A stretch of DNA of 64,000 bases. Source: a bacterium. Its GTDB lineage: Bacteria > Patescibacteriota > Minisyncoccia > Minisyncoccales > CG1-02-41-26. Shown in pieces: positions 1,278 to 49,115 of this stretch (its first letter is position 1; each line of letters opens with the position of its first letter). The position numbers were made by a program, and so were the translations under genes. The notes below the pieces were generated by a model. The model searched no databases. It was given only the letters and a program-made list of their open reading frames with translations, and was not told where the DNA came from. The DNA lies in NCBI GenBank assembly GCA_030648255.1, contig JAUSHZ010000007.1:24404-88403 (forward strand), written 5' to 3'.

Positions 1278-1489
1278 GTTAGAAGCTGTGTGAATTTTTA
1301 AATTTAATGATTTAAAAATTCATTACAGATTCTTACACCCCGTTAAGTGCGAGCGATGAGCGAGCTACTTAACTGGGGTTTGTTTGTATTCTTATCCACC
1401 CCAGTGAAGTAAAATTTGAGTACAAATTCACTTCACGGGGTTAAGCGATTGTATTTGTTCAGCCTCGGCTTCGGCTTCGCAAACAATCG
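1278..1489 (-). repeat. Intercistronic structured element, copy 1 (modules E1 / M-A / S4)
   Basis: Fills rpsK stop (1490) to rpsD ATG (1277). mRNA sense ends GCTTCTAAC-ATG. Has AT palindrome tgaatttttaaat/atttaaaaattca, hairpins ccccgttaagt/acttaactgggg and ccccagtgaagt/acttcacgggg, and stop-proximal stem gcgattgt/acaatcgc. Confidence 0.9.
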
Positions 1490-1945
1490 CTAAACCCTTC
1501 TTGGTTTTCTTGGCCGACAGCCATTATGAGGAATTGGCGTTACGTCTCTTATTGATTCTATCTCCAAGCCTTGAGCGGCAATAGTTTTTAAAGCTGAATC
1601 TCTTCCGCCTCCAACCCCCTTAACAAAAACAGCAACTTCTTTAATTTTAAATTGTTCGCAAGCTAAAGCTACCGCTTGGGCAACTTTAGAGGCGGCAAAA
1701 GAAGTGCCTTTCTTTGTGCCCTTAAACCCAACATTTCCAGCAGACCTCCAAAATAAGACATTTCCTTTTTCATCAGCCAAGCTGACAATAGTATTGTTAT
1801 AGGTTGAAGAAATATAAATTCTGCCCTTTCTAAAAGAAGTTCTGGTAGAAGCAACATTCAAATCTTTTCCTAATTTCTTTTCAACTTTATCTGTTTCTTC
1901 AATAAGCTCTTTTTCTGTTTTTTGTATTACTCTTTTCTTTCCCAT
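1490..1945 (-). CDS. rpsK: 30S ribosomal protein S11
   Basis: S11 core (RIYISSTYNNTIVSLAD..GNVLFWRSAG..GFKGTKKGTSFAA). ORF-track N-terminus MAKPLHSLTNTN is repeat sequence, so start is set at the conserved TACTAAC-ATG (1943-1945). Confidence 0.93.
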   Translation of the reverse strand: MGKKRVIQKTEKELIEETDKVEKKLGKDLNVASTRTSFRKGRIYISSTYNNTIVSLADEKGNVLFWRSAGNVGFKGTKKGTSFAASKVAQAVALACEQFKIKEVAVFVKGVGGGRDSALKTIAAQGLEIESIRDVTPIPHNGCRPRKPRRV

Positions 1946-2136
1946 GTTAGTATTCGTTAATGAATGAAGTGGCTTTGCCACGAATGAATTTACGAAGACT
2001 TACACCCTGTGGAGTAGAAATTTGCTCTGCAAATTTCTGTTTTAAATTTTTAGTAAAAAATTTAAAACTACTCCACGGGGTAAATTCGTCGTAAGCTCTG
2101 GCTTCGCCTGCTGGCTTTCCCTCGCTAACGGCTCAT
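1946..2136 (-). repeat. Intercistronic structured element, copy 2 (E4 / M-B / S3-like)
   Basis: rpsM stop to rpsK ATG. Closing stem caccctgtggagtag/ctactccacggggta encloses two AT hairpins. Stop-proximal stem aaattcgtcgt/acggctcattt abuts the TAA. Confidence 0.9.
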
Positions 2137-2526
2137 TTACTTTGGCCCTGGGGCTGTTTTTCTTCCAGAACTTACAGTTCTCTTAACATTGCCCCTTACA
2201 GTTCTTGAATTCTTTTTTGTTTTTTGCCCTCTAACAGTCAAGCCCTTTATGTGCCTGGTTCCTCGCCAACACTTAATCTCTTTTAATCTTTTAATATGGG
2301 CCACGTGCTCTCTTCTTAAGTCTCCTTCAATCTTATAACTTGCATCAATAACCTCTTTTATCTTCATTGCTTCTTGCTCGGTTAAATCTTTAGCTTTTTT
2401 CTGTGGCTCTATGTTGCATTGCTTTAAAATTCTTAAAGCCAATGGCCTGCCAATGCCAAAAACATAAGTCAAAGAAATGGCTATTTGTTTATTATCTGGA
2501 ATTGTGATGCTTGCTATTCGTGGCAT
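2137..2526 (-). CDS. rpsM: 30S ribosomal protein S13
   Basis: MPRIASITIPDNKQIAISLTYVFGIG.. is a typical S13. The MKIHTASN prefix in the ORF track is repeat sequence; start at CTAAC-ATG (2524-2526). Confidence 0.94.
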   Translation of the reverse strand: MPRIASITIPDNKQIAISLTYVFGIGRPLALRILKQCNIEPQKKAKDLTEQEAMKIKEVIDASYKIEGDLRREHVAHIKRLKEIKCWRGTRHIKGLTVRGQKTKKNSRTVRGNVKRTVSSGRKTAPGPK

Positions 2527-2751
2527 GTTAGAAGCTGTGTGAATTTTCAAATTTAATGATTTGAAAATTCATTACAGATTCTTACACCCCGTTAAGTGCG
2601 AGCGATTAGCAAGCTACTTAACTGGGGTTTGTTTATATTTCTATCCACACCCCAGTGAAGTAGAATTTAATTTCATTAAATTCACTTCACGGGGTAAATT
2701 CCGCCAACCGCTCAAACTTCGGCTCATCGCCTCGTTTTCGCGGGGCGTCAT
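2527..2751 (-). repeat. Intercistronic structured element, copy 3 (E1 / M-A / S2)
   Basis: rpmJ stop to rpsM ATG. Same E1 and M-A hairpins as copy 1. S2 arm ..cttcggctcatcgcctcgttttcgcggggcgtcattta ends in the rpmJ stop codon. Confidence 0.9.
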
Positions 2752-2868
2752 TTATGCGCCTTGGCGCTGTTTGTGTTTTGGAGTTTTGCAAATAACATAA
2801 ACCCTCCCCTTTCTTCTGGCGATTTTACAATCCTTACATAATTTTTTTACTGATGGTTTAACCTTCAT
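2752..2868 (-). CDS. rpmJ: 50S ribosomal protein L36
   Basis: Missed by ORF track (38 aa). Manual translation [38 protein letters not shown]. It is flanked by two element copies. Confidence 0.92.
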
Positions 2869-3085
2869 GTTAGAAGCTGTGTGAATTTTTAAATTTAATG
2901 ATTTGAAAATTCATTACAGATTCTTACACCCCGTTAAGTGCGAGCGATTAGCAAGCTACTTAACTGGGGTTTGTTTGTATTTCTATCCACACCCCAGTGA
3001 AGTAGAATTTGAGTACAAATTCACTTCACGGGGTAAATTCCGCTTGCCAATCGCGCTTCGCCTGCTGGCTCGCACTCTTGGAGCG
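2869..3085 (-). repeat. Intercistronic structured element, copy 4 (E1 / M-A / S1)
   Basis: infA stop to rpmJ ATG. S1 arm aaattccgcttgccaatcgcgcttcgcctgctggctcgcactcttggagcgtcat + tta stop. Confidence 0.9.
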
Positions 3086-3304
3086 TCATTTAAGTCTATA
3101 AACTATTCTGCCTCTTTTATCATCAATAGAGGCCATTTCAACCAACACCTTATCGCCCAACAAAATTTTTATGCGATTAATTCTAAGCTTCCCGGCCAAA
3201 TGCGCCAAAACCTCGTTTCCATTTTCCAATTGAATTTTAAATAAAAGACTAGGCAAAGCCTCTACAACTTGGCCTCTTTCTCTTATTGTATTAATTTGTT
3301 TCAT
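3086..3304 (-). CDS. infA: Translation initiation factor IF-1
   Basis: 72 aa S1-like OB fold; GQVVEALPSLLFKIQLENGNEVLAHLAGKLR..ILLGDKVLVEMASID. Confidence 0.93.
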   Translation of the reverse strand: MKQINTIRERGQVVEALPSLLFKIQLENGNEVLAHLAGKLRINRIKILLGDKVLVEMASIDDKRGRIVYRLK

Positions 3305-3358: not shown

Positions 3359-4738
3359 CTAGAAAACCATTTCTATCTTTATCTTATCTAGGCTTTTTGG
3401 CGCTCTTTTTATCCAAAAAGGCCAAAATTGCGTGTCCAGTCGTTCAATTTGGGGGTAGCTATTATTCAATAAAATCTCCATATCTTCTTTAGATTTTCCA
3501 GCTAAATCCGCAATTAAGGCTGTTTGGTCAATATCATTATAAAGCTTGGCATCTGTTTTTAAATTAAAAATCAAACTCCCTTTTTCCGTAATGCTGCCTT
3601 TTGGAACTACGCTTGTCGCTAAGCTTTGTTCGTATAATTTCTTTGAAGAAGATAGTTTTGTATCAATAAAGCTTTTGGCCATATCCTGCAAATCTGATCC
3701 CTTAAAAACAATTGTCTTAGCTTTTATTTTTGCATAACAATTAAATTCAGCGAGGTTGGCGCCAACAGCTTGAGAACAAGAGAACTCGGGCTCGCCATAG
3801 TCAACTGATTCTTGGTTAAAAGAAAATCCAGCGGTTGTTTGCTCCTTCAAGCCCGAAACAGCCATTTTTTTTAACTCCCTAATCAAGCTTTCTTGAGCAT
3901 TATCCATATCTCCTTGAGTTACTTGATCAACTTCTTTCTGACCCCCGCCGTCAATTTTTTCTCTTGATTCACCCCAAACATTATAGTATAAAGCTGTTCC
4001 TGTTAATCCTGGAATAGAAAACTTAGCAGGGGCTATATTATATTCCTCTCCCTCCTGATCAGCGACAACCTGAACCTCTGTAATGCTTGGGGTTAATTTT
4101 CCATTAAACAATGTGGCTTGGGGCAAAGAAATCTTATTTTTTGCCCGATAAACCTTTCCATCTTTTGATGATATAAATCTTGTTCCTGCTTTTAAGTTTA
4201 AGGGCATTGGGGGATTAATATTATTGTAAACAAATATAGCGCCCGTTGCCCCAGATTGTTCTGTTTCTTTTCCAGTTGACTTAAATGTTTCCCATTTCTC
4301 TACTTCTTTTTCAATTACATTTCCGGGAATAATCTTTTTTTCAAAATCGATTTGCGCTTGAGAAAAAGAAACTTGAATCTCGTCTTTAATTGTAATTGGC
4401 TCTAATAGCGGTTTCACGCTTATTTCTGCTTTTGCCTGCATCGTTAAATATAAAAAGGCTCCCCCTAAAAGCAAAATGGCTACACCAATAACTATGGGAA
4501 TTTTTAGAGCAAGTCTTGGTAAAGTAAAAGAAACTCGAATTTCTTTTTTTCCCTTGCCACGTCGGAGTTCCGCAGGAACGGAGGCGGGTCTTTCTTTTTT
4601 CACCTCCCCCTTCTTCATCCCCTTTCTTGTAGGTGATTTTTTTTGAGGCTTAGTTGAAGCTAAAACAATTGGAAATTGTTCCTCTGTTTCTTCTGCTTCT
4701 TCCTCATCTGGATTTGTTATATCAATAATTTGCTTCAT
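3359..4738 (-). CDS. Membrane-anchored hypothetical protein with large extracytoplasmic domain
   Basis: 459 aa; Lys/Glu-rich N-terminus and one TM helix (IPIVIGVAILLLGGAFLYL). Weak memory-based resemblance to baseplate-J-like proteins annotated in CPR genomes. Preceded by a short element copy. Confidence 0.6.
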   Translation of the reverse strand: MKQIIDITNPDEEEAEETEEQFPIVLASTKPQKKSPTRKGMKKGEVKKERPASVPAELRRGKGKKEIRVSFTLPRLALKIPIVIGVAILLLGGAFLYLTMQAKAEISVKPLLEPITIKDEIQVSFSQAQIDFEKKIIPGNVIEKEVEKWETFKSTGKETEQSGATGAIFVYNNINPPMPLNLKAGTRFISSKDGKVYRAKNKISLPQATLFNGKLTPSITEVQVVADQEGEEYNIAPAKFSIPGLTGTALYYNVWGESREKIDGGGQKEVDQVTQGDMDNAQESLIRELKKMAVSGLKEQTTAGFSFNQESVDYGEPEFSCSQAVGANLAEFNCYAKIKAKTIVFKGSDLQDMAKSFIDTKLSSSKKLYEQSLATSVVPKGSITEKGSLIFNLKTDAKLYNDIDQTALIADLAGKSKEDMEILLNNSYPQIERLDTQFWPFWIKRAPKSLDKIKIEMVF

Positions 4739-4866
4739 GTTAGAAATTCTTAATTGAGTGGCGAATTTATGAGCCGTGAAATTTAGAAGTTTTTAGTCCT
4801 CCGTAAATTCAAACTTCGCCTACTGACTCGTTTTCATTAACGGATTACTTATTCTACCACAAAAAT
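4739..4866 (-). repeat. Intercistronic structured element, copy 5 (short form: E3 / no M / S3-like)
   Basis: alaS stop to the ATG of the 459 aa gene. Ends AATTTCTAAC-ATG. E3 stem ttcttaatt/aatttagaa and S stem agtcctccgt/acggattact are present, but the middle domain is missing. Confidence 0.8.
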
Positions 4867-10524: not shown

Positions 10525-10681
10525 TTTTTAACTCCTCTTAGATAATTTACCTAAAGCCAGTTTAAAGTATTCACGACAACACAAATATTACTACTTAACC
10601 ACAAAAAATCAAGCCATGCTGTCAAAACCCGATTTTGGGCTCCCTAAAAATCGGATTTCAAGGGATCCTTGATTGAAATAA

Positions 10682-10703
10682 ACAAAAAACGCCTTTCGGC
10701 GAG
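10682..10703 (-). terminator. Rho-independent terminator about 235 nt downstream of secY
   Basis: Minus sense CGCCGAAAGGCG + UUUUUUG. Confidence 0.6.
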
Positions 10704-10937
10704 ATATATATTCTTTTTTCTCTTCACCCCCCAACAAGAAAACTTGGAGAAATGCGAGCTTGTTTGTTTTTCTTTGCCTTACGAAGAGAGATTAGAAAAT
10801 TTAGGAGCGAAACGAGGGAAAATAGTGGTAGGTCGCCGAAGGCGATCGGGCACCACGTAATTTTTCCGAAGTTTCGCGACTAAAATTTTCAAGCTCTTGA
10901 AGTTCAGCAAAGAAAAATAAATAAGCGAAGTCAGCTT

Positions 10938-12221
10938 CTACAAGTTTTCGTAGTCCCTCATTTCCATTTGGGCTTTTACTTGCCTCCAAATATCCAAAAC
11001 CACAGAAACCACAATCAATATGGCAGTTCCTCCAATTAAAAATTGAAAAGCCACCACCCCTGTTATCCCCTGAATAATTGAAGGCATTACCGCAATTAAG
11101 CTTAAAGATAAAGCGCCAATAAAAAGTGTGCGGTATAAAATCTTTTGCAAAAACTTGGCAGTTGATTCCCCCGGCCTAATGCCTGGCACAAAGCCACCCA
11201 TTTTTTGCAAGTTAGTGGCAATTGATTTTGGGTCAAAGGTAACGGCTGTGTAGAAAAAAGTAAACAGAAAAACCAAAACAAAAAATAGAGATCCGTTCAC
11301 CCAAACATTTGATAAAAATAATGAAACTGCCTTGGCGGTATTGGCAATAAAAGCGTTTCCTCCAACAGTTAAAAAATTAGCAATCATTGTAGGGAAAAGT
11401 AAAATGCTTAAAGCAAAAATAATAGGAATCACGCCAGCCGGGTTTAAATTAATTGGCAAATAAGTGGACACACCTCCATACATTTTATTGCCCCGCACTC
11501 TCTTGGCATAGTTAACTGGAATATTTCTTTTCGCTTCAGTTATTAAGACAACTCCAGCAATAATTACCAAAGCAATGATAAAAAATGCAATATATGGAAG
11601 CGCTTTTGAAGAGTCCCAACTTAAAGCAATTTGTCTGATTTGCGAAGGCGTATCAGCCACAATGCCAGCAAATATCAAAATTGAAACACCATTACCAACA
11701 CCCTTTTCAGTAATAAGTTCGCCAAGCCACATTAAAAATAACGCCCCCCCAGTAATTGTGATAATAGAGGTAATCATTTGCCACGCTGGCAAAACAGCAA
11801 TGGCTCCCTGTTTCTGAAATAGCATTAACATTGCGTAGGCCTGTAATACTGCTAAAGGCACTGTTAAAATTCTGCCATATTTATTAAACCTGGCTCTGCC
11901 TGCTTCTCCTTCTTCTTTATACATTTTTTCCAAAGCTGGAAAAATCATTGTTAAAAGCTGAATAATAATGGTTGAAGTGATATACGGGCCCAAGCCAAGC
12001 ATAACAATTGATAAATTAGAAAAAGCCCCCCCGACGAAAACATTTAAAAGCCCCAAAAGCTCGTTTTGGCTAAAAAATCTTTTTAAATTTTCTAAGTCAA
12101 TCCCTGGAATGGGAATGTTAGCGGCCAATCGTGAAACAGCCAACAAAGCCAAAACAAATAGAATTTTATTTCTTAATTGTTTGTCTTTAAATATTAATAA
12201 TAGTTTTTGAAACCACTCCAT
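10938..12221 (-). CDS. secY: Preprotein translocase SecY
   Basis: 427 aa with 10 predicted TM segments and typical SecY blocks (GPYITSTIIIQLL, GGALFLMWLGELITEKG). Confidence 0.95.
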   Translation of the reverse strand: MEWFQKLLLIFKDKQLRNKILFVLALLAVSRLAANIPIPGIDLENLKRFFSQNELLGLLNVFVGGAFSNLSIVMLGLGPYITSTIIIQLLTMIFPALEKMYKEEGEAGRARFNKYGRILTVPLAVLQAYAMLMLFQKQGAIAVLPAWQMITSIITITGGALFLMWLGELITEKGVGNGVSILIFAGIVADTPSQIRQIALSWDSSKALPYIAFFIIALVIIAGVVLITEAKRNIPVNYAKRVRGNKMYGGVSTYLPINLNPAGVIPIIFALSILLFPTMIANFLTVGGNAFIANTAKAVSLFLSNVWVNGSLFFVLVFLFTFFYTAVTFDPKSIATNLQKMGGFVPGIRPGESTAKFLQKILYRTLFIGALSLSLIAVMPSIIQGITGVVAFQFLIGGTAILIVVSVVLDIWRQVKAQMEMRDYENL

Positions 12222-12409
12222 GTTAGTAATTCTTAATTGAACGGCGAATTTATGAGCTGTGAAATTTAGAATTTCTTACACCCCGTGGAGTAGAAATTTG
12301 CTCTGCAAATTTCTATTTTAAATTTTTTACTAAAAATTTAAAATTACTCCACAGGGTAAATTCCGCTTGCCAATCGCGCTTCGATTACTCAGCACTCTTG
12401 GAGCGTCAT
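12222..12409 (-). repeat. Intercistronic structured element, copy 6 (E3 / M-B / S1 variant)
   Basis: rplO stop to secY ATG. Ends ATTACTAAC-ATG. Closing stem caccccgtggagtag/ttactccacagggta. Confidence 0.9.
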
Positions 12410-12841
12410 TTACTTTACTGTTCCTCCTGCTTTTTCTATTTTAACTTGAGCAGCTTTTGAAACCAAGCAATCCTCAATAGTAAGTGATTTAGTAAGTTCG
12501 CCATTTCCTAAAATTTTTACCAATGGAACTTTGCCTATAATTTTTCTAATTAATTTTTTATCAACTAAAACTTCCGGGGTAATTTTGTCTCCTTTTTCAA
12601 AATTCTTTTCTAAAACATTAAGATTTATAGAGGCTGTTTCTTCTCCTCTTAATTCCTGCCTGTATCCTCTTATTTTTGGATATCTTTTAATAATCTCTCT
12701 CATAAAGGGTTGCATTTTTCTCCCAGCCCTTGATTTTTGGCCTTTGCAACCCTTCCCACAGTAAGTTCCCTTCTTGCCTCCTCTGCCAATTCTTTTTCTA
12801 TCTTTTGTCTTATTATTTGGTTGTATTTCGTGAATTTGCAT
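12410..12841 (-). CDS. rplO: 50S ribosomal protein L15
   Basis: 143 aa; KRIGRGGKKGTYCGKGCKGQKSRAG block. Confidence 0.93.
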   Translation of the reverse strand: MQIHEIQPNNKTKDRKRIGRGGKKGTYCGKGCKGQKSRAGRKMQPFMREIIKRYPKIRGYRQELRGEETASINLNVLEKNFEKGDKITPEVLVDKKLIRKIIGKVPLVKILGNGELTKSLTIEDCLVSKAAQVKIEKAGGTVK

Positions 12842-13007
12842 GTTAGTAATTCTTAATTGAACTGCGAACGATTAGTGAGCTGTGAAATTTAGAAGTACTT
12901 ACACCCTGTGGAGTAGAAATTTGCTCTGCAAATTTCTGTTTTAAATTTTTAGTAAAAAATTTAAAACTACTCCACGGGGTAAATTCCGCCTTCCACTCAA
13001 ACTTCGG
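12842..13007 (-). repeat. Intercistronic structured element, copy 7 (E3 / M-B / S2; S2 continues into the rpsE 3' end to about 13040)
   Basis: rpsE stop to rplO ATG. S2 homology (..cttcggctaatcgcctcgttttcgtggggcgtcattta) extends 33 nt into the rpsE coding sequence. Confidence 0.9.
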
Positions 13008-13526
13008 CTAATCGCCTCGTTTTCGTGGGGCGTCATTTAACTGTTGTAAGGCCGCTACTGTTGCCCGGGCGATATTTAATTTATTTCTTGATCTTGACAA
13101 TAACTTTGATGATATATTCCTAATTCCAGCTAAACTGCAAATAACTCTTACCTGGCCGCCAGCCACCAACCCCCTACCTTTTGCCTGAGGCCTTAACAAA
13201 ACCCTTGCTGGGCCATACTTTGCTGTAACCTCATGGGGAATTGTTTCCTCAAACATTGGAACAGAAATTAAATTCTTCTTGGCCAACCGAGTTGATTTTT
13301 CAACAGCAATTGCCACATCAGGCCCCTTGGCCACACCTAATCCAATTTTTCCCTTTTTATTGCCAACCACCACAACTGCCCTAAACCTCATTTGCTTTCC
13401 TCCCTTTGTTACTCTTGTAACTCTGGCTAAATCTAAAACCACCGAGTCGAACTCATCTTTCGGTTTTGCTGGAAATTGACCTCTTCTTTCTCTATTAAAT
13501 TTTCCTTGTTGTTGCTGTTGTTCCAT
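13008..13526 (-). CDS. rpsE: 30S ribosomal protein S5
   Basis: 172 aa; VTRVTKGGKQMRFRAVVVVGN..GLGVAKG and S5 C-terminal domain. The last ~10 codons ([10 protein letters not shown]) are encoded by element sequence. Confidence 0.93.
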   Translation of the reverse strand: MEQQQQQGKFNRERRGQFPAKPKDEFDSVVLDLARVTRVTKGGKQMRFRAVVVVGNKKGKIGLGVAKGPDVAIAVEKSTRLAKKNLISVPMFEETIPHEVTAKYGPARVLLRPQAKGRGLVAGGQVRVICSLAGIRNISSKLLSRSRNKLNIARATVAALQQLNDAPRKRGD

Positions 13527-13720
13527 GTTAGTAATTCTTAATTGAACGGCGAACGATTAGTGAGCTGTGAAGTTTAGAAGTACTTACACCCTGTGGAGTA
13601 GAAATTTGCTCTGCAAATTTCTGTTTTAAATTTTTTACTAAAAATTTAAAACTACTCCACGGGGTAAATTCCGCTTGCCAATCGTGCCTCACCTGCTGGC
13701 TCGCACTCTTGGAGCGTCAT
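13527..13720 (-). repeat. Intercistronic structured element, copy 8 (E3 / M-B / S1)
   Basis: rplR stop to rpsE ATG; same modules as copies 6/7, with S1 arm ending ggagcgtcat+tta. Confidence 0.9.
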
Positions 13721-14065
13721 TTAAAATTGTAGCCCACCTTCTCTCGCTCCTTCAGCCAACGCTTTTATTCTACCATGATATTTAAAGCCTCCTCTATCAA
13801 AAACAACTTTTTTAATCTTTTTTTCTATTGCTAATTTAGCAATTTCCTTACCAACATTAAAAGCCTTTTCTAATTTTTTCAGTTTTTTCTCTTTTGAATC
13901 GTTTGCTGAAATAATAGTTTTGCCTTTTGTGTCGTCAATTATTTGAGCATAGATATGCTGGTTTGATTTAAATACGCAAAGCCGAGGCGCGGTTGGTGTG
14001 CCAATGACTTTTGCCCTGATTCGGCTGTGTCTTCTTGTTCTTTTTTGTTGTTTTGTCTGTTGCAT
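13721..14065 (-). CDS. rplR: 50S ribosomal protein L18
   Basis: 114 aa; [42 protein letters not shown]. Confidence 0.93.
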
Positions 14066-14258
14066 GTTAGTAGTCGTTAATGAATGAGTGGCGATTAGCC
14101 ACGAGTGAATTTACGAATTCTTACACCCTGTGGAGTAGAAATTTGCTCTGCAAATTTCTGTTTCAAATTTTTAGCAAAAAATTTGAAACTACACCACGGG
14201 GTAAGTCCTCCGTAAGCTCTGGCTTCGGCTAATCGCCTTGCCATCGCTAACGGATTAC
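14066..14258 (-). repeat. Intercistronic structured element, copy 9 (E4 / M-B / S3)
   Basis: rplF stop to rplR ATG. E4 apex ggcgattagcc (14090-14100) is the exact reverse complement of S3 apex ggctaatcgcc (14227-14237). Confidence 0.9.
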
Positions 14259-14819
14259 TTATTTTCCAGCTTTCTTGCCCTCTTTCTTGCGGACAATTTC
14301 ACCAAAATATCTAACGCCCTTGCCTTTGTATGGCTCTGGCTTTCTTAAAGCTCTTATTTTTGCTGCAAACTGGCCAACCTGTTGCTTGTCAAAACCAAAA
14401 ATATTTATAAATTGTTTTTCTATTTTTATAGACAAACCCCCTGGAATCTCCATAAAAATAGGGTGAGAAAAACCCAAGTCCAATCTTATTTTCGATTCTC
14501 CCTCCATAGCAGCCTTGTATCCAACTCCCCTAAGCTCTAATTTCTTTTCAAATCCAACTGAGACGCCATGAACATGGTTCAATAATAAAGCAGTGGTTAA
14601 CCCCCAGAGAGCAGGAATTTCTTTGCTCTCTTTTTCCTGTCTGCCGACAGGCAGGGCTGGCTTTACAACTAAAATATTACCTTGTTGTTCCACAACAATA
14701 CCAACAGGAATTTCCTGTTTTATCTCTCCCTTAGGCCCTTTAAATAAAACATTATCTTTTTCAAGAATAACTGTTACGCCTTGGGGTATTTCTATTGGTT
14801 TTTTTCCTATTCTTGACAT
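14259..14819 (-). CDS. rplF: 50S ribosomal protein L6
   Basis: MSRIGKKPIEIPQGVTV.. The MKTHTISN prefix in the ORF track is repeat sequence; start at CTAAC-ATG (14817-14819). Confidence 0.93.
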   Translation of the reverse strand: MSRIGKKPIEIPQGVTVILEKDNVLFKGPKGEIKQEIPVGIVVEQQGNILVVKPALPVGRQEKESKEIPALWGLTTALLLNHVHGVSVGFEKKLELRGVGYKAAMEGESKIRLDLGFSHPIFMEIPGGLSIKIEKQFINIFGFDKQQVGQFAAKIRALRKPEPYKGKGVRYFGEIVRKKEGKKAGK

Positions 14820-15021
14820 GTTAGAAATTGTGTGAGTTTTCAAGCTATAATCTTTTTTATGGCTTGAAAACTCATTACAAGTTCTTACACCCTGTGGAGT
14901 AGAAATTTGCTCCGCAAATTTCTGTTTTAAATTTTTTACTAAAAATTTAAAACTACTCCACGGGGTAAGGTATCCGTAAGCTCGGGCTTCGCCTGCTGGC
15001 TCGCCCTCGCTAACGGCTACC
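14820..15021 (-). repeat. Intercistronic structured element, copy 10 (E2 / M-B / S3)
   Basis: rpsH stop to rplF ATG. E2 hairpin gagttttcaagc..gcttgaaaactc. S3 stem aaggtatccgt/acggctacctt carries compensatory changes relative to copy 9. Confidence 0.9.
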
Positions 15022-15411
15022 TTACCACACTTCCACCATTAATTCACCTCCGACTTTATCTTTTCTGGCTTGCTTATCTGTTAATAAACCATTGGTGGTT
15101 GAAACAATAGATAAGCCATAGCCACTTCTTACCTTTGAAATCTCGTCTGCTTTTTTATAAATTCTTTGCCCTGGCTTTGAAATCCTTTTAAACCCAGAGA
15201 CGGCTGGCATCTTTTCATTATATTTTAACTGTATTTTTATAATTTGAAACGGCTTTTTCCCTTTTTTCTTGCAATCCAAAATAAGCCCCTCTGCTTTTAA
15301 AATTTCAGCAATTGAGTATCTTAGTTTTGAAAAAGGAACATCGGTTGTTTTATGGAAAACAACTTGAGCGTTCCTTATTCTATTAAACATGTCTGTTATT
15401 GGATCGGTCAT
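15022..15411 (-). CDS. rpsH: 30S ribosomal protein S8
   Basis: MTDPITDMFNRIRNAQ.. is a typical S8. Start after CTTCTAAT-ATG (15409-15411). Confidence 0.93.
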   Translation of the reverse strand: MTDPITDMFNRIRNAQVVFHKTTDVPFSKLRYSIAEILKAEGLILDCKKKGKKPFQIIKIQLKYNEKMPAVSGFKRISKPGQRIYKKADEISKVRSGYGLSIVSTTNGLLTDKQARKDKVGGELMVEVW

Positions 15412-15612
15412 ATTAGAAGTTGTGTGAGTTTTCAAGCTATAATTTTTTTTATGGCTTGAAAACTCATTACAAATTCTTATACCCCGTGGAGTAGAAATTT
15501 GCTCTGCAAATTTCTGTTTTAAATTTTTTACTAAAAATTTAAAACTACTCCACAGGGTAAGTCCTCCGTAAGCTCTGGCTCGGCTGTTGCCTCGCCATAG
15601 CTAACGGATTAC
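15412..15612 (-). repeat. Intercistronic structured element, copy 11 (E2 / M-B / S3)
   Basis: rpsN stop to rpsH ATG. Only copy ending CTAAT-ATG instead of CTAAC-ATG. Confidence 0.9.
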
Positions 15613-15798
15613 TTACCAAGACGACTTCTTAATCCCGGGTATTTCTCCTTTACTTGCCATTTCCCTAAAACAAATTCTGCACAAACCAAAGTCCCTTATA
15701 AATCCCCTGTACCTTCCGCACTTAAAACATCGCCTCACTATTCTTGAAGAAAACTTTGGTTTTCGGTTTGATTGATTAATTAATGATTTTTTTGCCAT
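15613..15798 (-). CDS. rpsN: 30S ribosomal protein S14 (short zinc type)
   Basis: 61 aa; CFKCGR..CRICFR zinc ribbon and C-terminal KKSSW. Confidence 0.93.
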
Positions 15799-15974
15799 GT
15801 TAGTGATTCTTAATTGAACGGCGAGCGATTAGCGAGCTGTGAAATTTAGAATGACTTACACCCCGTTAAGTGCGAGCGATTAGCGAGCTACTTAACTGGG
15901 GTTTCGTTGTATTCTTACCCCACCCCAGTGAAGTAGAATTTGAGTACAAATTCACTTCACGGGGTAAGGCTCTG
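15799..15974 (-). repeat. Intercistronic structured element, copy 12 (E3 / M-A / S5)
   Basis: rplE stop to rpsN ATG. Ends ATCACTAAC-ATG. The motif cgagcgattagcgagc occurs in both the E3 and M-A loops. Confidence 0.9.
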
Positions 15975-16577
15975 CTACCGCTCAACCTTCGCCTTCGGCT
16001 CGGCTTCACGGGCAGAAGCCTTAAATGGAAACCCCAGCAATCTTAATAATGCAGCGCCTTCTTCCTTTGTTTTGGCTGTTGTTGAAATTGTTACTTCTAA
16101 TCCAAAAATGCCTTTCTCTTTTTCAACTTTCAATTCAGGAAATGGAACATACTCTTTAAATCCAACTGTAATATCTCCTTGGCTTGTCATAGATTTCTCT
16201 TCAACGCCCCTAAAGTCTCTAGACCTTGGCAAAACAACCCAAATCAACTTCTCTAAAAAATCATACATTCTTTTCTTTCTTAAGGTGCAGCTGGCTCCAA
16301 CCGCCATACCTTCTCTTAGCTTGAAAGCAGCAATTGATTTTTTTGCTTTATTTAGAGATGGTTTTTGCCCGGTAATAGCGGCTATTGATTGAGCAATATA
16401 TTCTTCCGCTTTTTCTCTCTCACTGGCGCTTTTTCCAATAACCATTTTGCCAAAACCGCAATTAACAACAATCTTCTTTATTTTTGGCACAGCCATAACA
16501 GAACTATACCCGAATTTCTTCGTCATTTCAGGAATAACTATTTTATTGTATTGCTCTTGTAATTTCATATTTTTCAT
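15975..16577 (-). CDS. rplE: 50S ribosomal protein L5
   Basis: MKNMKLQEQYNKIVIPEMTKKFGYSSVMAVPKIKKIVVNCG.. Start is ambiguous (16577 or 16568). The ORF-track N-terminal 19 aa lie over an upstream hairpin. Confidence 0.9.
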   Translation of the reverse strand: MKNMKLQEQYNKIVIPEMTKKFGYSSVMAVPKIKKIVVNCGFGKMVIGKSASEREKAEEYIAQSIAAITGQKPSLNKAKKSIAAFKLREGMAVGASCTLRKKRMYDFLEKLIWVVLPRSRDFRGVEEKSMTSQGDITVGFKEYVPFPELKVEKEKGIFGLEVTISTTAKTKEEGAALLRLLGFPFKASAREAEPKAKVER

Positions 16578-16586
16578 GAAGCTGTC

Positions 16587-16641
16587 GAAGCTGTTGAAAC
16601 CGAGCTTCTGGAAGCCCTTGAAGCTCGGTTTCAACAGCTTC
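16587..16641 (-). promoter_or_regulatory. 22-bp perfect hairpin just upstream of rplE
   Basis: gaagctgttgaaaccgagcttc - 11 nt - gaagctcggtttcaacagcttc, between the rplX stop (16656) and the rplE start. It replaces the modular element at this junction. Confidence 0.7.
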
Positions 16642-16655
16642 AGGCTCCATAGCTT

Positions 16656-16961
16656 TTAAATATCAGCTTTGCATTTCTTGCAAATTCTAACTTTATTTTC
16701 TCCTTCTACCTTATAGCCAATTCTTGTGGGTTTATTGCACTTAGGACATAAAGCCTGCGCTTTGGAGGCATTCATTGGAAAAGAAATTTCCACAATTTGC
16801 CCTTTTTCTCCTTGTTTTTTTGGCTTTTTATGCGTCTTTTTTATATTAACTCCTTCAACCAAAATCATTTCCTTAGATGGAAAGCTTTTTAAAACCTTGG
16901 CTTTCTTGCCTTTATCCTTGCCAGCGATTATTAAAACATTGTCTCCTTTTTTGATTCGCAT
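16656..16961 (-). CDS. rplX: 50S ribosomal protein L24
   Basis: MRIKKGDNVLIIAGKDKGKK (KOW) plus C-terminal CPKC..CKKC ribbon. MKTHTISN prefix is repeat sequence. Confidence 0.92.
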   Translation of the reverse strand: MRIKKGDNVLIIAGKDKGKKAKVLKSFPSKEMILVEGVNIKKTHKKPKKQGEKGQIVEISFPMNASKAQALCPKCNKPTRIGYKVEGENKVRICKKCKADI

Positions 16962-17177
16962 GTTAGAAATTGTGTGAGTTTTCAAGCTATAATCTTTTTT
17001 ATGGCTTGAAAACTCATTACAAGTTCTTACACCCTGTTAAGTGCGAGCGATGAGCGAGCTACTTAACTGGGGTTTGTTTATATTATTCTCATACCCCAGT
17101 GAAGTAGAATTTGATTACAAATTCACTTCACGGGGTTAAGCGATTGTAATGCTCGGCTATCGCCTCGCAGACAATCG
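16962..17177 (-). repeat. Intercistronic structured element, copy 13 (E2 / M-A / S4)
   Basis: rplN stop to rplX ATG. Combines the E2 hairpin of copies 10/11/15 with the M-A and S4 modules of copy 1. Confidence 0.9.
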
Positions 17178-17546
17178 CTAAACAACATCTTTAGCCATGG
17201 TTATTATGGCATCAAATCCTTTTTCTTTTAATTCTCGAGGAACCGGCCCTAAAATTCTATTTCCTTTAGGCTGTTTCTGATCATTTAAAATACAGCAAGC
17301 ATTGTCATCAAATCGCAAATAGGAACCGTCTTTTCTTCTAAACGGACTCTTTTGCCTTACAATAACGGCCTTAACAACCTGATGTTCCTTAACATCGCGC
17401 CTTGGCTCTGCTTTTTTAACCGCTGCAACAATTATGTCGCCAATTCTTGCATATTTCTTTCTTGTGCCTCCAGGCACCCCAAAACACTGAACTATCTTAG
17501 CTCCAGTATTATCTGCCACATTTAACATTGTTCTTAACTGAATCAT
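17178..17546 (-). CDS. rplN: 50S ribosomal protein L14
   Basis: 122 aa; MIQLRTMLNVADNTGAK.. Confidence 0.95.
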   Translation of the reverse strand: MIQLRTMLNVADNTGAKIVQCFGVPGGTRKKYARIGDIIVAAVKKAEPRRDVKEHQVVKAVIVRQKSPFRRKDGSYLRFDDNACCILNDQKQPKGNRILGPVPRELKEKGFDAIITMAKDVV

Positions 17547-17550
17547 GGGT

Positions 17551-17778
17551 TTATTTTTTTACTACTTTCCAACACTTATCTTTACTCAAAGGCCTTGACT
17601 CTTCTATTAAAACCTTGTCTCCAATTTCAAAAATATTGCCCGCTGTATCTGCCTTATACTTTTTCGAAGATGTGTATCGCTTTCTGTATTTTGGATGCAC
17701 CTTTATTGTTTCCACTTTCACCACAACAGTGTTTGTCATTTTATTGGAAACTATTTGTCCTTTTAATATCTTTTTCAT
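17551..17778 (-). CDS. rpsQ: 30S ribosomal protein S17
   Basis: 75 aa; GQIVSNKMTNTVVVKVE..HPKYRK.. Confidence 0.92.
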   Translation of the reverse strand: MKKILKGQIVSNKMTNTVVVKVETIKVHPKYRKRYTSSKKYKADTAGNIFEIGDKVLIEESRPLSKDKCWKVVKK

Positions 17779-17966
17779 TTTTTTATTAAAGTTAATATGC
17801 GAGCTATATTTCTTCTTGATGTTCTTATCTGTCTAATATCCTTTATTTTTCCAGCAGCCAAATCAAATCTAAAAACTCGAAGATTTTCTTGCTTTTCCCT
17901 CAATGATTTTTGCAAATCATCTTTGCTTAATTTTGAAAGCTCTTTTAGCGCTTCTTGTCTTTTCAT
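17775..17966 (-). CDS. rpmC: 50S ribosomal protein L29
   Basis: 63 aa; coiled L29 pattern (LRFDLAAGKIKDIRQIRTSRRNIARILT). 4-nt overlap with rpsQ. Confidence 0.9.
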   Translation of the reverse strand: MKRQEALKELSKLSKDDLQKSLREKQENLRVFRFDLAAGKIKDIRQIRTSRRNIARILTLIKK

Positions 17967-17967
17967 A

Positions 17968-18375
17968 CTATTTTTTTACAAATTTAACTTTAATTGGCAA
18001 TTTATCTGAGGCCTTGCCAAACGCCTCAACAGCAATCTTTTCATCCACTCCATCAATTTCAAATATCACTCTACCAGGTTTTATCGGAAAAACATAATGG
18101 TCAACAGCCCCCTTGCCTCCACCCATTCCAACTTCTCCGCCTTTTTGCGTAATTGGTTTTTGGGGGAATATCCTAATCCATAGCTTACCCTTTCTTTTCA
18201 TTGCTTTTGTAATAGCTTTTCTAGCTGATTCCATTTGGTTGGCTGTAATCCATTTTGTTCCCATTGATTTCAATCCAAAAGAACCATAGGAAACTTCTGT
18301 TCCTCTTGTATCATTTCCTTTGCTTGTGCCCTTATGCCATTTCCTATGTTTCATTTTTCTTGGTTGTGTCAACAT
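17968..18375 (-). CDS. rplP: 50S ribosomal protein L16
   Basis: MLTQPRKMKHRKWHKG.. MKIHTASN prefix is repeat sequence; start at CTAAC-ATG (18373-18375). Confidence 0.93.
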   Translation of the reverse strand: MLTQPRKMKHRKWHKGTSKGNDTRGTEVSYGSFGLKSMGTKWITANQMESARKAITKAMKRKGKLWIRIFPQKPITQKGGEVGMGGGKGAVDHYVFPIKPGRVIFEIDGVDEKIAVEAFGKASDKLPIKVKFVKK

Positions 18376-18566
18376 GTTAGAAGCTGTGTGAATTTTCAAA
18401 TTTAATGATTTGAAAATTCATTACAGATTCTTACACCCCGTGGAGTAGAAATTTGCTCTGCAAATTTCTGTTTTAAATTTTTAGTAAAAAATTTAAAACT
18501 ACTCCACAGGGTAAATTCCGCTTGCCAATCACGCTCGCCTGCTGGCTCGCGCTCTTGGAGCGTCAT
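18376..18566 (-). repeat. Intercistronic structured element, copy 14 (E1 / M-B / S1)
   Basis: rpsC stop to rplP ATG; E1 AT palindrome combined with the M-B three-way junction. Confidence 0.9.
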
Positions 18567-19226
18567 TTAATTAAAGCGTTCTCCCTTATACATCCAAACC
18601 TTAACGCCAATAACCCCATAAGTGCAGTGTGCCTCGCATGAGCCATATTCAACTATGGCTCTTATTGTTTGAAGCGGAAGTCGCCCATCTTTTAACCATT
18701 CTCTTCTGGAAATTTCAACTCCATTTAACCTACCTGATACCTCAACCTTCACGCCTTTTATTTCTTTTTGCTCAGCTGTTTTGCTTATTGCCATTTTCAA
18801 AACTCTTCTAAACGGCACTTGCTTTTCGATTTGGCCAGCCATCCATTGAGCTGTTAAGCTGGCTGAAAGCCATGGGTTTCTTATTTCAATAATTTCTATT
18901 TTAATGCTGTTTTTATCTGTTTTTATCTTCCCCTTTACTTTTGATATTGCTTTTTCAATTCCCATTTTCAAATCCTCAACTCCTTTGCCCCCCCTGCCGA
19001 TAATCAAAGCGGGTCTGGAAGTTTTAATAATAATTTTTAAGGCAGCGGATGTTCTCTCTATCTCTACTTCCTGAATAATACCCGCGGGTAGCTTCTTAGT
19101 GATAAACTGCCTAATTATAAAATCCTCCTCTAAGTAAACAGGAAAATTGTTCTTATAAAAGCCTCTTGAAAGCCAGTCTTTCATTTCTCTTATCTTAAAA
19201 GATTTTGGGTTGACTTTATGGCTCAT
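18567..19226 (-). CDS. rpsC: 30S ribosomal protein S3
   Basis: 219 aa; KH domain (IIGRGGKGVEDLK) and S3 C-terminal domain. Confidence 0.95.
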   Translation of the reverse strand: MSHKVNPKSFKIREMKDWLSRGFYKNNFPVYLEEDFIIRQFITKKLPAGIIQEVEIERTSAALKIIIKTSRPALIIGRGGKGVEDLKMGIEKAISKVKGKIKTDKNSIKIEIIEIRNPWLSASLTAQWMAGQIEKQVPFRRVLKMAISKTAEQKEIKGVKVEVSGRLNGVEISRREWLKDGRLPLQTIRAIVEYGSCEAHCTYGVIGVKVWMYKGERFN

Positions 19227-19576
19227 ACTTTTGATTTATCTTGTTTAAAAATATCTAAATTTAAAGTAATATTAGAAGTTTTCTTTTCTATTCTACAAGC
19301 CCTGCCCCTAGCTCTGGCCCTCCATCTTTTAAGGGTTCTGCCCTCATCAACTTTAATTAAGGAAATAAACAAATCTTTTTCTTCTAATTTAAAATTGTTT
19401 TTAGCGTTGGCCACTGCTGAATCCAAAAGCTTTTTTAAAGGCAAGGCTCCTTTTTTAATGCAAAATCCTAAAGATGCTTGGGCTTTCCCAGCAGATTTTC
19501 CTCTAACCATATCAGCCACCAAGCGAACTTTTCTGGGTGATATTCTTAAATTGTTTAATTTTGCTATAACTTGCAT
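19223..19576 (-). CDS. rplV: 50S ribosomal protein L22
   Basis: MQVIAKLNNLRISPRKVRLVADMVRGK.. The ORF-track N-terminal 18 aa are repeat sequence. Confidence 0.93.
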   Translation of the reverse strand: MQVIAKLNNLRISPRKVRLVADMVRGKSAGKAQASLGFCIKKGALPLKKLLDSAVANAKNNFKLEEKDLFISLIKVDEGRTLKRWRARARGRACRIEKKTSNITLNLDIFKQDKSKV

Positions 19577-19776
19577 GTTAGAAATTGTGTGAGTTTTCAA
19601 GCTATATTTCCTTATGGCTTGAAAACTCATTACAAGTTCTTACACCCCGTGGAGTAGAAATTTGCTCCGCAAATTTCTGTTTTAAATTTTTAGTAAAAAA
19701 TTTAAAACTACTCCACAGGGTAAATTCCGCTTGCCAATCGCGCTTCGCCTGCTGGCTCGCGCTCTTGGAGCGTCAT
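19577..19776 (-). repeat. Intercistronic structured element, copy 15 (E2 / M-B / S1)
   Basis: rpsS stop to rplV ATG. Confidence 0.9.
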
Positions 19777-20103
19777 TTATTTCTTTACTGGTACTGGTGC
19801 TTTAGGTTGGGTTTGAGTTTGCACTTTTGATTCTTGCTCTCTTTGCATTTTTCCGCCATGCCTGCCAAACTTCGTGGTTGGGGAAAATTCTCCTAATTTA
19901 TGGCCAACCATATCTTCTGAAACATAAACGGGAATATGCTCTTTTCCATTATGGACTCCAAAAGTAAAGCCAACCATTTCTGGTGTAACAGAACACTCGC
20001 GAGACCATGTCTTAATAACTTTTTTCTCGCCAGCTTTCTGGTTGATGACTTTTTTTATTAATCTTTCGTCCACAAAAGGACCCTTTTTTAGTGATCGTGG
20101 CAT
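19777..20103 (-). CDS. rpsS: 30S ribosomal protein S19
   Basis: 108 aa; [22 protein letters not shown], with a C-terminal extension. Confidence 0.94.
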
Positions 20104-22014: not shown

Positions 22015-22641
22015 CTATTTACTCTTTTTCTTATTTACTATTGAACTTGTAATCTCTACAAGCGTTCCTCGCCTGCCAGGGATGGCGCCTTTTACTGCAA
22101 TCAAATTATTTTCCAAATCAATTTTAACAATTTTTAAATTTCTCACCGAAATTCGCACAAATCCCATATGGCCTGGCATTCTCTTGCCCGGGAAAACTCT
22201 ACCCGGGTCAGTAGCACCAACCGAACCAATTGTTCTTACTTCATGCTTTGTGCCATGGGTTGTGTGATGCCCCCTAAAATTATATCTCTTAACACCTCCT
22301 TGAAACCCTTTGCCCTTGCTAATACCTGAAATTTTAACTTTATCTCCTTCTTGAAAAACAGAGGCATTAATCTCCTGCCCTAATTCATAATTCTTAATTC
22401 CTGATTCCTGAGGCCTGAACTCTTTTAAATATCTATACTCTTTGCCTTTCTCGGTTTTCTTAATTTTTCTAGCTTTTTTTTCAAAACCAATCTGAACCGA
22501 TTCATAGCCATCTTTGCTTTCCTTGGTCTTATTTTGTAAAACAACACAAGGCCCAGCTGTAATCAAAGTTACTGGGACTGCATCTCCCTTTTCATTAAAT
22601 ATTTGAGTCATCTCTAATTTTTTTCCAAGAATAAATGACAT
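22015..22641 (-). CDS. rplC: 50S ribosomal protein L3
   Basis: 208 aa; GKGFQGGVKRYNFRG..HGTKHEVRTIGS. Confidence 0.95.
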   Translation of the reverse strand: MSFILGKKLEMTQIFNEKGDAVPVTLITAGPCVVLQNKTKESKDGYESVQIGFEKKARKIKKTEKGKEYRYLKEFRPQESGIKNYELGQEINASVFQEGDKVKISGISKGKGFQGGVKRYNFRGHHTTHGTKHEVRTIGSVGATDPGRVFPGKRMPGHMGFVRISVRNLKIVKIDLENNLIAVKGAIPGRRGTLVEITSSIVNKKKSK

Positions 22642-22941
22642 GTTAGAAGCTGTGTGAATTTTTAAATTTAATGATTTAAAAATTCATTACAGATTCTTAC
22701 ACCCTGTGAAGTAAAATTTGAGTACAAATTTTAATTTTAAATTTTTTACTAAAAATTTAAAATTACTTCACGGGGTTAATAATCCGTAAGCTCAAGCTTC
22801 GCCTGCTGGCTCGCTCTCGCTAACGAATTATTAAAAACACGAGGCATTAACTCCCCGCATTTTTGTTAAAAACTCAAGGGTTAAATTCTTCCCACTTTCA
22901 AGGGTTAAACTAATTAAGTTTTACCTTGAACTCTATATTAA
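22642..22941 (-). repeat. Intercistronic structured element, copy 16 (E1 / hybrid M / S3-like, about 22642-22838) plus a unique ~100 nt spacer
   Basis: rpsJ stop to rplC ATG. Closing stem caccctgtgaagtaa/ttacttcacggggtt and S stem ttaataatccgt/acgaattattaa. The spacer 22839-22941 holds two copies of caagggttaaa. Confidence 0.85.
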
Positions 22942-48956: not shown

Positions 48957-49115
48957 ATTTTTTTATTATATTATAATTATATTAGAGCTGGCAATAATAG
49001 CTTTTAGGAGACCACGAGGGTACCCTCCGCGCATGTGGAGGTCTTAATACTTGTGGTAAATCCTAGGAGACGCCACTCTATAAAAATCATCTCTTTTGAG
49101 GTGTTTTTTATTATT

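Follow-up and report, generated by a model that had tools for sequence, protein, structure and literature searches.

Why does the stop codon of a ribosomal-protein gene lie within the stem of an RNA hairpin? The question is raised by rplF, the gene of ribosomal protein L6, in a window of 64,000 nucleotides (nt) from contig JAUSHZ010000007.1, the whole stretch of DNA analyzed here. The window is a contig of a Paceibacteria-type Patescibacterium; its L6 is 100% identical to a deposited protein labelled "50S ribosomal protein L6 [bacterium]", and relatives of this L6 are labelled Candidatus Pacebacteria or Paceibacterota. We find that the structure at the rplF stop codon is a real and evolutionarily maintained RNA hairpin. 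This hairpin, termed S, is the stop-proximal part of a repeat of about 200 bases that consists of three abutting hairpins (S, M and T) and spans the spacer from the UAA of one gene to the AUG of the next, between many highly expressed genes. The str-S10-spc-alpha ribosomal-protein cluster lies on the minus strand of the window, from rpsL (at about 28231) to rpsD (at 642), and 17 spacers in the window are each occupied by such a repeat of 115–300 nt, the same spacers being short in related genomes. The copy between rplF and rplR, written rplF>rplR, has the following parts:

14259–14819, minus strand: open reading frame (ORF) of rplF (L6), with a Ribosomal_L6 domain.
14259–14261, minus strand: stop codon UAA of rplF, forming the first three pairs of the S hairpin.
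14202–14261, minus strand: S module, a 60-nt irregular hairpin supported by fold and covariation, with its 5' arm at 14250–14261 and its 3' arm at 14202–14213.
14125–14202, minus strand: M module, with a basal stem of 13–14 base pairs (bp), ACCCCGUGGUGUAG / CUACUCCACAGGGU, and two AU-rich hairpins on a three-way junction, supported by a pattern match (14120–14202), fold and covariation.
14066–14124, minus strand: T module of the T4 type, a start-proximal hairpin GUAAG...CUAAC that abuts the rplR start.
14063–14065, minus strand: start codon AUG of rplR (L18; ORF 13721–14065), one base after the conserved CUAA of T.

In mRNA sense the rplF>rplR spacer begins UAA-GUAAUCCGU...ACGGAGGACUU-ACCCC. 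When the 60-mer S of this copy was folded alone, one dominant hairpin was obtained (–30.3 kcal/mol, z = –6.87) and 0 of 200 shuffled sequences were as stable; the antisense strand gave –24.6 kcal/mol. The closing pairs are U1-A60, A2-U59 and A3-U58, so that the whole stop codon is within the stem, and the hairpin further contains tandem purine–purine oppositions and an apical GGC-GAUUA-GCC hairpin. An earlier annotation made from the letters alone (hereafter the sequence-only reading), which numbered this copy 9, had pointed to the stem. Copies 10, 11 and 16 in that numbering and the L18>S5 copy fold with z values of –4.2 to –7.9, the S of copy 2 is weaker (z = –2.6), and the stability of S ranges from –16 to –34 kcal/mol. 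All four arm pairs quoted in the sequence-only reading are found in the sequence (for copy 9, plus-strand aagtcctccgt at 14203–14213 and acggattactt at 14250–14260), and it was correct about the fourth pair (T:A in copy 9, G:C in copy 10) and about two A-G oppositions in the stem of copy 9. It had described the stop codon both as built into the stem, which holds, and as a plus-strand tta immediately after the arm, which does not: the stop overlaps the arm by two bases, A2 and A3 being paired, and U1 can pair as well, with the A of the ACCC that comes next.

To guard against circularity, the 5' end of the S modules used for the covariation analysis was set solely by the stop of the longest ORF upstream, and the 3' end solely by the ACCC of M. 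The modules were drawn from contigs that match an M-specific pattern and from operons fetched via L6 homologues (about 110 distinct S and 114 distinct M). Fifty-four distinct S were so defined; the 45 in the commonest UAA register were kept, and nine TAG-type, +4-frame or read-through copies were left out. With the register fixed, 88.1% of the cells of the basal stem are paired in these 45 sequences (27 distinct arm pairs), compared to 66.4% after shuffling (reached in 0 of 500 shuffles), with a covariation score of 0.563 as against 0.167; sliding the partner by one to three columns lowers pairing to 20–48%. RNAalifold applied to the raw MAFFT alignment missed the middle helix, two S types being shifted by one column, and the fixed register and a manual structure were therefore used. 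With the manual structure on the MAFFT alignment, 95.9% of the cells of the whole hairpin are paired, compared to 71.1% in shuffled alignments, and the score is 0.608 compared to 0.160. Two-sided changes occur in 11 of the 15 pairs, with up to five pair types per column. The proposal that differences between the arms are compensatory is thus borne out by the counts over the 45 sequences. At rpsN>rpsH, for example, the arms differ between genomes yet stay complementary (UCCGU/ACGGA, GCUGU/ACAGC, GCGC/GCGC and GCACU/AGUGC).

Positions 6–7 of S are purine–purine (G.A/A.G or A.G/A.G) in 24 of the 27 distinct arm pairs, so that the A-G oppositions of copy 9 are a feature of the family rather than decay. 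Note that the stop-codon pairs are nearly invariant, with one G.U in 45 sequences; because they hardly vary, they neither support nor contradict the structure. The stem of M covaries as well (position 8, UA 56 and GC 48; position 9, AU 94 and GC 16; position 11, GC 56 and AU 53). At position 5 of that stem (14198/14129, for example), an apparent C.A to U.G covariation was seen in nine of nine window copies, never with a Watson-Crick pair there; it was rejected since the two sides vary independently across the 114 distinct M (UA 45, CA 36, CG 16, UG 15).

S is also strand-asymmetric: in 80 of 83 distinct copies the mRNA-sense fold is the more stable one, with a mean advantage of 5.4 kcal/mol over antisense (p ~1e-14). 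Covariation, this asymmetry and the lack of any antisense copy among those found support the suggestion of the sequence-only reading that pairing is selected at the RNA level.

Throughout the family the modules keep the order S-M-T; the types of S and T recombine, and M may be missing, single or double (44–151 nt). S measures 55–60 nt, is irregular, with purine–purine tandems every few pairs, and has a conserved apical CGAG-CC...GG-CGAAG motif. M begins ACCCYGU and finishes ACRGGGU; its usual form is a stem of 13–14 bp with two AU-rich hairpins, and it also occurs as a single 19-bp hairpin, doubled, or 140–150 nt long. Whether built from a 13–14 bp basal stem plus arms of 9–13 bp or from the single 19-bp hairpin, its duplex has the length expected of an RNase III site (about 20 bp or more of near-perfect duplex). 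T starts with GUAAG and ends with CUAAN directly before the AUG. In most of the 17 window spacers the minimum-energy fold consists of three abutting hairpins with no linker, the UAA lying at the foot of S and the first letter of the AUG at that of T. The rplF>rplR copy (14063–14261, minus strand) departs from this: its T4 is the reverse complement of its S2-type S, including GGCGAUUAGCC versus GGCUAAUCGCC, and consequently its global fold prefers a long-range helix that joins S (5' half) to T (3' half) and encloses M. Inverted ends (GTAATCCGTTA versus GAAATCGTTA) are found in the S2/T4 subfamily. The elements as a whole lack terminal inverted repeats, with a mean of 4.75 matches in 14 within elements compared to 4.52 in 14 between elements.

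Some features of the modules stand apart. The apical loop of some S contains a nested mini-hairpin, CCCAGUAGGUCAUUCUACUGAAUGAGG, about 27 nt long (L001, 7750–7830; L004, 3365–3445; also L008, L014, L024 and L067; three-digit L numbers denote genomes or contigs compared with the window), which suggests a mosaic or nested insertion. A terminator scan found no terminator-like sites on the sense (minus) strand inside the elements, S being followed by UUUACCCC with no U-tract. On the antisense (plus) strand the second M hairpin together with a T-run is terminator-like (12286–12320, 14131–14165 and 18441–18475, for example); 26 plus-strand sites of this kind lie in 12200–19800, where 6.5 are expected, and no comparable sense-strand cluster was reported. 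A short ORF inside T was considered and dropped (it is present in T1 and T2 but not in T3 and T4, and its length is not conserved), as were integron attC sites, SECIS (selenocysteine insertion) or readthrough signals, kink-turns and sarcin-ricin motifs, whose defining features are absent on inspection of the sequence. Rfam 15 at the gathering threshold gave only tRNA and DUF3800-V in the window and nothing on the elements, where the E-value threshold yielded only sub-threshold microRNA-hairpin noise.

The 17 elements of the window are the following (copy numbers are those of the sequence-only reading):

27548–27817, minus strand: rpsL>rpsG; S, a long M, T.
22639–22834, minus strand: upstream of rplC; S starts 115 nt past the rpsJ stop, behind a conserved native leader.
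19574–19779, minus strand: rpsS>rplV.
18373–18569, minus strand: rpsC>rplP.
16959–17180, minus strand: rplN>rplX; S of the TAG-CGAUUGU type, two M hairpins.
15796–16023, minus strand: rplE>rpsN; S opens with an out-of-frame UAA (16021–16023), and rplE stops at a UAG (15975–15977) in the 3' arm.
15409–15615, minus strand: rpsN>rpsH; a junction filled as well in L001, L004 and L101, in the distant L016 and in several metagenome contigs.
14817–15024, minus strand: rpsH>rplF; copy 10.
14066–14261, minus strand: rplF>rplR; copy 9, with S2, M and T4.
13524–13723, minus strand: rplR>rpsE.
12839–13039, minus strand: rpsE>rplO; rpsE enters S and stops at a UAG (13008–13010) in the apical loop.
12219–12412, minus strand: rplO>secY.
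4736–4851, minus strand: alaS>gene with a GlxA-like domain; S and T without M, the alaS stop lying 15 nt upstream of S.
2866–3092, minus strand: infA>rpmJ; the infA stop is the UGA at +4 within UAAAUGA.
2524–2754, minus strand: rpmJ>rpsM.
1943–2139, minus strand: rpsM>rpsK; copy 2.
1275–1492, minus strand: rpsK>rpsD.

Every copy is co-oriented with the flanking gene, and 122 of 131 distinct M-T junctions lead into an ORF of at least 50 codons in the same direction. The downstream genes are mostly those of ribosomal proteins, rpoC, nusA, frr, clpP, ssb, pyrG and similar genes. No antisense copies were found among more than 120; an antisense match to S2 in L005 is a chance hit inside a coding region. 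On contig L030 two elements in opposite orientation lie 2.2 kb apart, before pyrG and rpmA, each running along its own gene, which argues that the direction of the element follows transcription and not the replication strand. The junction between T and the start codon, CTAAN-ATG, is strict (CTAAC directly followed by ATG being commonest, at 66 of the 131 M-T junctions), and T is always 1–3 nt from the ATG, even behind promoters. No Shine-Dalgarno sequence precedes the AUGs of the elements, unlike those of other window genes, such as the gene starting at 10524.

At the other end, 81 of 98 copies of S open with TAA, regardless of the preceding sequence and of whether the triplet is used as a stop. 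A census of stop use covered the 84 copies in which the basal stem is recognizable and an ORF of 50 codons or more lies upstream. In 47 of them the upstream ORF stops at the first S triplet; the stop is at +4 (TGA or TAA, from the motif TAA-R-TRA, which has stops in two frames) in four, infA being an example; the ORF enters S and stops in the loop or the 3' arm in 24 (for example rplE and rpsE, the latter also in L004); and it ends upstream of S in nine. In the window the first S triplet serves as the stop in 12 of 17 cases (rpsL, rpsS, rpsC, rplN, rpsN, rpsH, rplF, rplR, rplO, rpmJ, rpsM and rpsK), among them the four named in the sequence-only reading (rpsM, rplF, rpsH and rpsN). The remaining five are infA with its +4 TGA, rplE and rpsE, which read into S, and the rpsJ>rplC and alaS copies, where the stops lie 115 and 15 nt upstream. 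Moreover, at eight or more loci S directly follows a promoter-like –10 box, with no ORF before it (TGGTATAAT-AAGTAATCC; TTGACA-17 nt-TAACAT-AAAATATC). These loci are in L006, L014, L030, L040, L045, L063, L081 and L097, the box is often an extended TGnTATAAT, and its last T is the T of the element's TAA, so that transcripts would start inside the 5' arm of S.

The sequence-only reading had held that the boundary of the element is fixed to the stop codon, and had named variable stop distances in other genomes as evidence to the contrary. The 47 copies in register agree with a fixed boundary; the four at +4, the 24 read-in and nine upstream cases and the promoter loci do not, and part of the copies thus have their stops at variable distances. 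It is at the start codon that the boundary is strict, with T abutting the ATG. The stop codon comes built into the stem since the element itself begins with the triplet UAA. Note that the elements also distort gene calls: rplE and rpsE (15975–16023 and 13008–13039, minus strand) gain C-terminal tails of about 10–15 residues encoded by S, on L5 and S5, and gene callers choose false upstream starts inside T, such as the TTG at 14843 for rplF.

The M-specific pattern occurs nine times in the window, where none is expected by chance. Among 185,579 species-representative genomes it gave 19 stretches, nearly all in one Paceibacterota assembly, JAQULB01, with single copies in three other Patescibacteria genome assemblies; it also matched 74 metagenome contigs and gave no matches in viral contigs. 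JAQULB01 holds at least 25 copies of the element on 6 contigs, among them dispersed full-length copies that share one S-M-T combination at unrelated loci. The family belongs to a narrow clade of Paceibacteria (Patescibacteria, candidate phyla radiation). Relationships were determined from five concatenated proteins in six genomes, and elements were counted per operon. The window has 17. L098 (GCA_043797465.1), closest to the window at 92.9% protein identity, has none, its spacers being 1–16 nt. L099, closest to L001 (92.7%) and L004 (92.6%), likewise has none; L004, closest to L099 (92.6%), has about 14, L001, closest to L099 (92.7%), has two, and the outgroup L101 (80%) has four. Patescibacteria have very small genomes, and here about 3.4 kb of structured spacers lie inside the most conserved operon of a streamlined genome whose nearest relative has none.

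The type of S and T at a given junction tends to be kept across the window, L004 and L001. The rpsN>rpsH junction is occupied in genomes whose S8 protein identity falls to 63%. Between genomes T is 90–96% and M 72–94% identical at this junction; in the comparison with L016, T is 90–96% and M 80–88% identical, the flanking genes being about 68% identical in nucleotides and S8 63% in protein. A deletion remnant is seen at rplE>rpsN of L004, which retains only the end of M and T. The 16-nt rpsH>rplF spacer is identical in L001, L098 and L099 (attaagaattactaaa) and matches the end of T3 (attaagaattactaac) at 15 of 16 positions; it is either a deletion remnant or a native sequence ancestral to T3. 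Simple insertion with duplication of a TAA was rejected, since filled sites replace the native spacer (rplE>rpsN, rplF>rplR and rpsJ>rplC compared with L098 and L001). Patchiness among close relatives, deletion remnants and near-identical modules in distant genomes argue that mobility or exchange is also involved, and the statement that the stop-codon geometry points to selection "rather than random insertion" was therefore too strong. The family is therefore old, repeatedly lost, and also exchanged or homogenized.

What, then, might the element do? To judge by structure, covariation in place, strand asymmetry, strict sense orientation and the exact fit from stop to start, the copies are under constraint as a portion of the mRNA. 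We put at roughly one in two the probability that the element acts on the mRNA, punctuating the polycistronic transcript. The S hairpin, irregular and rod-like with its tandem G.A pairs, would cap the upstream cistron at its 3' side; M would be a processing site for a double-strand-specific nuclease of the RNase III type, or an insulating site; and T would cap the 5' side and present an AUG that has no Shine-Dalgarno sequence. A ribosome at the stop would already have melted S. The UAA (often UAA-R-URA) would become the upstream stop when the repeat abuts an ORF in frame, and the ORF would otherwise enter S or end upstream. From the sequences we infer transcription within the mRNA, cleavage, and effects on stability or translation. 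A broader proposal, which we advance tentatively and at well under even odds, is that this is a lineage-specific form of mRNA punctuation in genome-reduced Patescibacteria, in which cassettes replace Shine-Dalgarno or overlap coupling in the ribosomal-protein operon, give each cistron its processing sites and protective ends, and pass between genomes as exchangeable modules; functionally it would resemble mitochondrial tRNA punctuation or the RNase III sites of phage T7.

Several observations weigh against an action on the mRNA. M folds without strand asymmetry, and its counts of G.U and A.C are similar; together these indicate that for M a constraint at the DNA level is possible. The closest relatives, L098 and L099, run the operon without elements and with spacers of 1–16 nt, which argues that the element is dispensable. 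The identity of T and M between distant genomes at rpsN>rpsH (80–96%), where flanking genes are only about 68% identical, suggests exchange or mobility and not simple vertical conservation. Finally, no RNase III is among the window proteins scanned.

These points lead to a serious rival, compatible with an effect on the mRNA, although in itself we consider it rather improbable: that the repeat is selfish, non-autonomous mobile DNA of the kind of miniature transposable elements with inverted repeats (MITEs), repetitive extragenic palindromic (REP) sequences or bacterial interspersed mosaic elements (BIMEs). Its hairpins would then serve mobilization as single-stranded or cruciform DNA, the TAA would be a target or terminal triplet, and sense orientation and flush ends would reflect only the insertions that a compact genome tolerates. 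The seriousness of this rival comes from patchiness (17, about 14, 2, 0 and 0 elements in genomes at 88–93% protein identity) and from dispensability in sister genomes. Deletion remnants (rplE>rpsN of L004, and perhaps the 16-nt rpsH>rplF spacer of L001, L098 and L099), the dispersed copies of one S-M-T combination on 6 contigs of one assembly, and near-identical modules in a genome with 63% S8 protein identity point the same way, as do the TAA at both ends of the element (TAA...CTAA-N-ATG), the inverted ends of the S2/T4 subfamily, the mini-hairpins nested in S loops, the ORFs that run into S in 24 of 84 copies, and a different GC-rich palindrome family in the same operon of L098 (CCCCACCCCUC...GAGGAGUGGGG, in the four spacers rpsJ>rplC, rplR>rpsE, tim>alaS and rpmJ>rpsM). 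Mobile DNA of this kind, however, does not readily account for the replacement of the native spacer at filled sites, for a T that stays 1–3 nt from the ATG even behind promoters, or for the lack of terminal inverted repeats outside one subfamily. Nor does it sit well with a strand-asymmetric S that has no antisense copy among more than 120, with S and T types that are junction-specific, conserved across genomes and subject to compensatory change in place, or with the absence of viral-contig matches and of a transposase among the window proteins scanned. The opposite orientations on L030, which follow gene direction, speak against the replication-strand determinism of REP/RAYT repeats or of palindromic elements derived from IS200/IS605, which go with a cognate HUH transposase.

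Other explanations place the function at the codons themselves. In one of them the stacked hairpins bring the UAA, at the foot of S, next to the AUG, at the foot of T, so that termination and reinitiation could be coupled across the 200-nt spacer in a shunt-like manner. The linker-free hairpins do place stop and start at one hub, T ends in UAA-N-AUG like the native compact junctions (TAA c ATG, TAA t ATG) of element-free relatives, the element AUGs lack the Shine-Dalgarno sequence of other window genes, and the minimum-energy fold of rplF>rplR brings S (5' half) and T (3' half) into one helix. We nonetheless regard such coupling as unlikely: elements lie behind promoters without an upstream ORF and 115 nt past the rpsJ stop, 44% of the S modules have no functional stop in register, long-range S:T pairing is limited to the S2/T4 combination, and the ribosome unfolds S before the stop is reached. 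Less probable again is a brake on the upstream gene, in which the hairpin would stall terminating ribosomes and lower upstream output, as a summary in PMC12306157 describes for REP sequences of E. coli that lie no more than 15 nt from a stop codon. The stability of S (–16 to –34 kcal/mol) and its position 0 nt from the stop in 47 of 84 copies fit this precedent, but M, T and the strict ATG junction would go unexplained, many copies do not follow a stop, and there is no obvious rationale for braking a dozen stoichiometric ribosomal proteins when close relatives have no such hairpin. That a hairpin directly after a stop codon is an ordinary feature, be it a chance palindrome, an intrinsic terminator or a recoding signal, is effectively refuted. 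A chance palindrome is ruled out by 0 of 200 and 0 of 500 shuffles matching the observed stability and covariation, a terminator is contradicted by the missing U-tract and the missing sense-strand prediction, recoding is contradicted by a stop that is UAA or UAG with no conserved in-frame continuation, and no Rfam family matches.

How does the element compare with known systems? Phage T7 and bacterial operons have RNase III sites between cistrons, long hairpins that leave a 3' hairpin upstream and a defined 5' end downstream. The S-M-T layout would permit the same ends, with cleavage in M a prediction from its duplex; those sites, unlike the present elements, are single-copy and not repeats. 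The closest known kind is that of mosaic or palindromic intergenic repeats such as the BOX elements of pneumococci. BOX elements (boxA-boxB(n)-boxC) are modular and strongly folded when transcribed, encode the stops of 36 genes (strain ATCC 700669), and occasionally contribute a start codon through boxC (PMC3049150). The likeness is one of architecture: fixed end modules with a variable middle, a non-coding length of about 100–300 nt, many dispersed copies, strong folding as RNA, and an upstream stop supplied by the repeat. Sequence homology to boxA, boxB or boxC would not be expected between phyla. Unlike BOX, the present element spans exactly from stop to start, is always in sense, occupies a ribosomal-protein operon, has a Patescibacterium as host and carries conserved tandem G.A pairs in S.

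Correia elements (CREE/NEMIS) of Neisseria and ERIC sequences of enterobacteria are likewise palindromic repeats within operons, and are transcribed and alter the stability of flanking mRNA (PMC2649163, PMC10969869, PMC3049150). Transcribed Correia elements are cut by RNase III (PMC2649163, PMC10969869), which cleaves or is blocked at their long duplex. Correia elements differ in having 26-bp terminal inverted repeats, TA duplications and both orientations, whereas here inverted ends occur in one subfamily, the orientation is single and the element is flush with the start codon. REP sequences and BIMEs share with S the stable hairpins a few nt from a stop in spacers and the mosaic clusters, and effects on mRNA stability and on upstream termination are among those proposed for REP in the summary in PMC12306157; they differ in being units of about 35 nt in alternating orientation and linked to the RAYT transposase, their stems do not usually contain the stop, and they fall short of the next start. 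With MITEs the element shares presence/absence polymorphism among relatives, and unlike them it is not inserted in either orientation and shows no target-site duplication at filled compared to empty sites. Literature searches found no prior description of the element in Patescibacteria, Parcubacteria or the candidate phyla radiation. Compared to the known kinds, what differs is the single orientation, the exact span from stop to start, the concentration in the ribosomal-protein operon, the lack of general terminal inverted repeats, and the G.A-rich rod of S.

If the element acts on the mRNA, it would be a compact natural design for insulating or processing cistrons without Shine-Dalgarno sequences, and an entry into the gene expression of an uncultivated phylum. 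If it is selfish, the repeat would have evolved to be translationally harmless by bringing its own stop and start context. Over 100 natural stem variants are available for the study of hairpins at stop codons.

Some further features lie near the elements. The L6 of the window has 186 amino acids, compared to 179 in most close relatives, which suggests a short insertion. The rplX>rplE spacer (16577–16655, minus strand) contains a different, perfect hairpin of 22 bp (GAAGCUGUUGAAACCGAGCUUC...GAAGCUCGGUUUCAACAGCUUC), and the same junction is 4–6 nt in L001, L004, L098, L099 and L101. Downstream of secY (10680–10940, minus strand) lies a rod-like structure of about 170–230 nt (z = –4.4) with a terminator-like hairpin at its end; it is conserved in L001, L004 (twice) and L101, has no Rfam match, and is a candidate small RNA. 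Directly upstream of rpsL, an ORF (28367–29317, minus strand) encodes a protein of 316 amino acids with no Pfam match and contains four tandem units of 51 nt (28739–28939). The DUF3800-V RNA (48983–49080, plus strand; 41.9 bits, above the Rfam gathering threshold) adjoins a DUF3800 protein gene at 49116–49784 on the minus strand.

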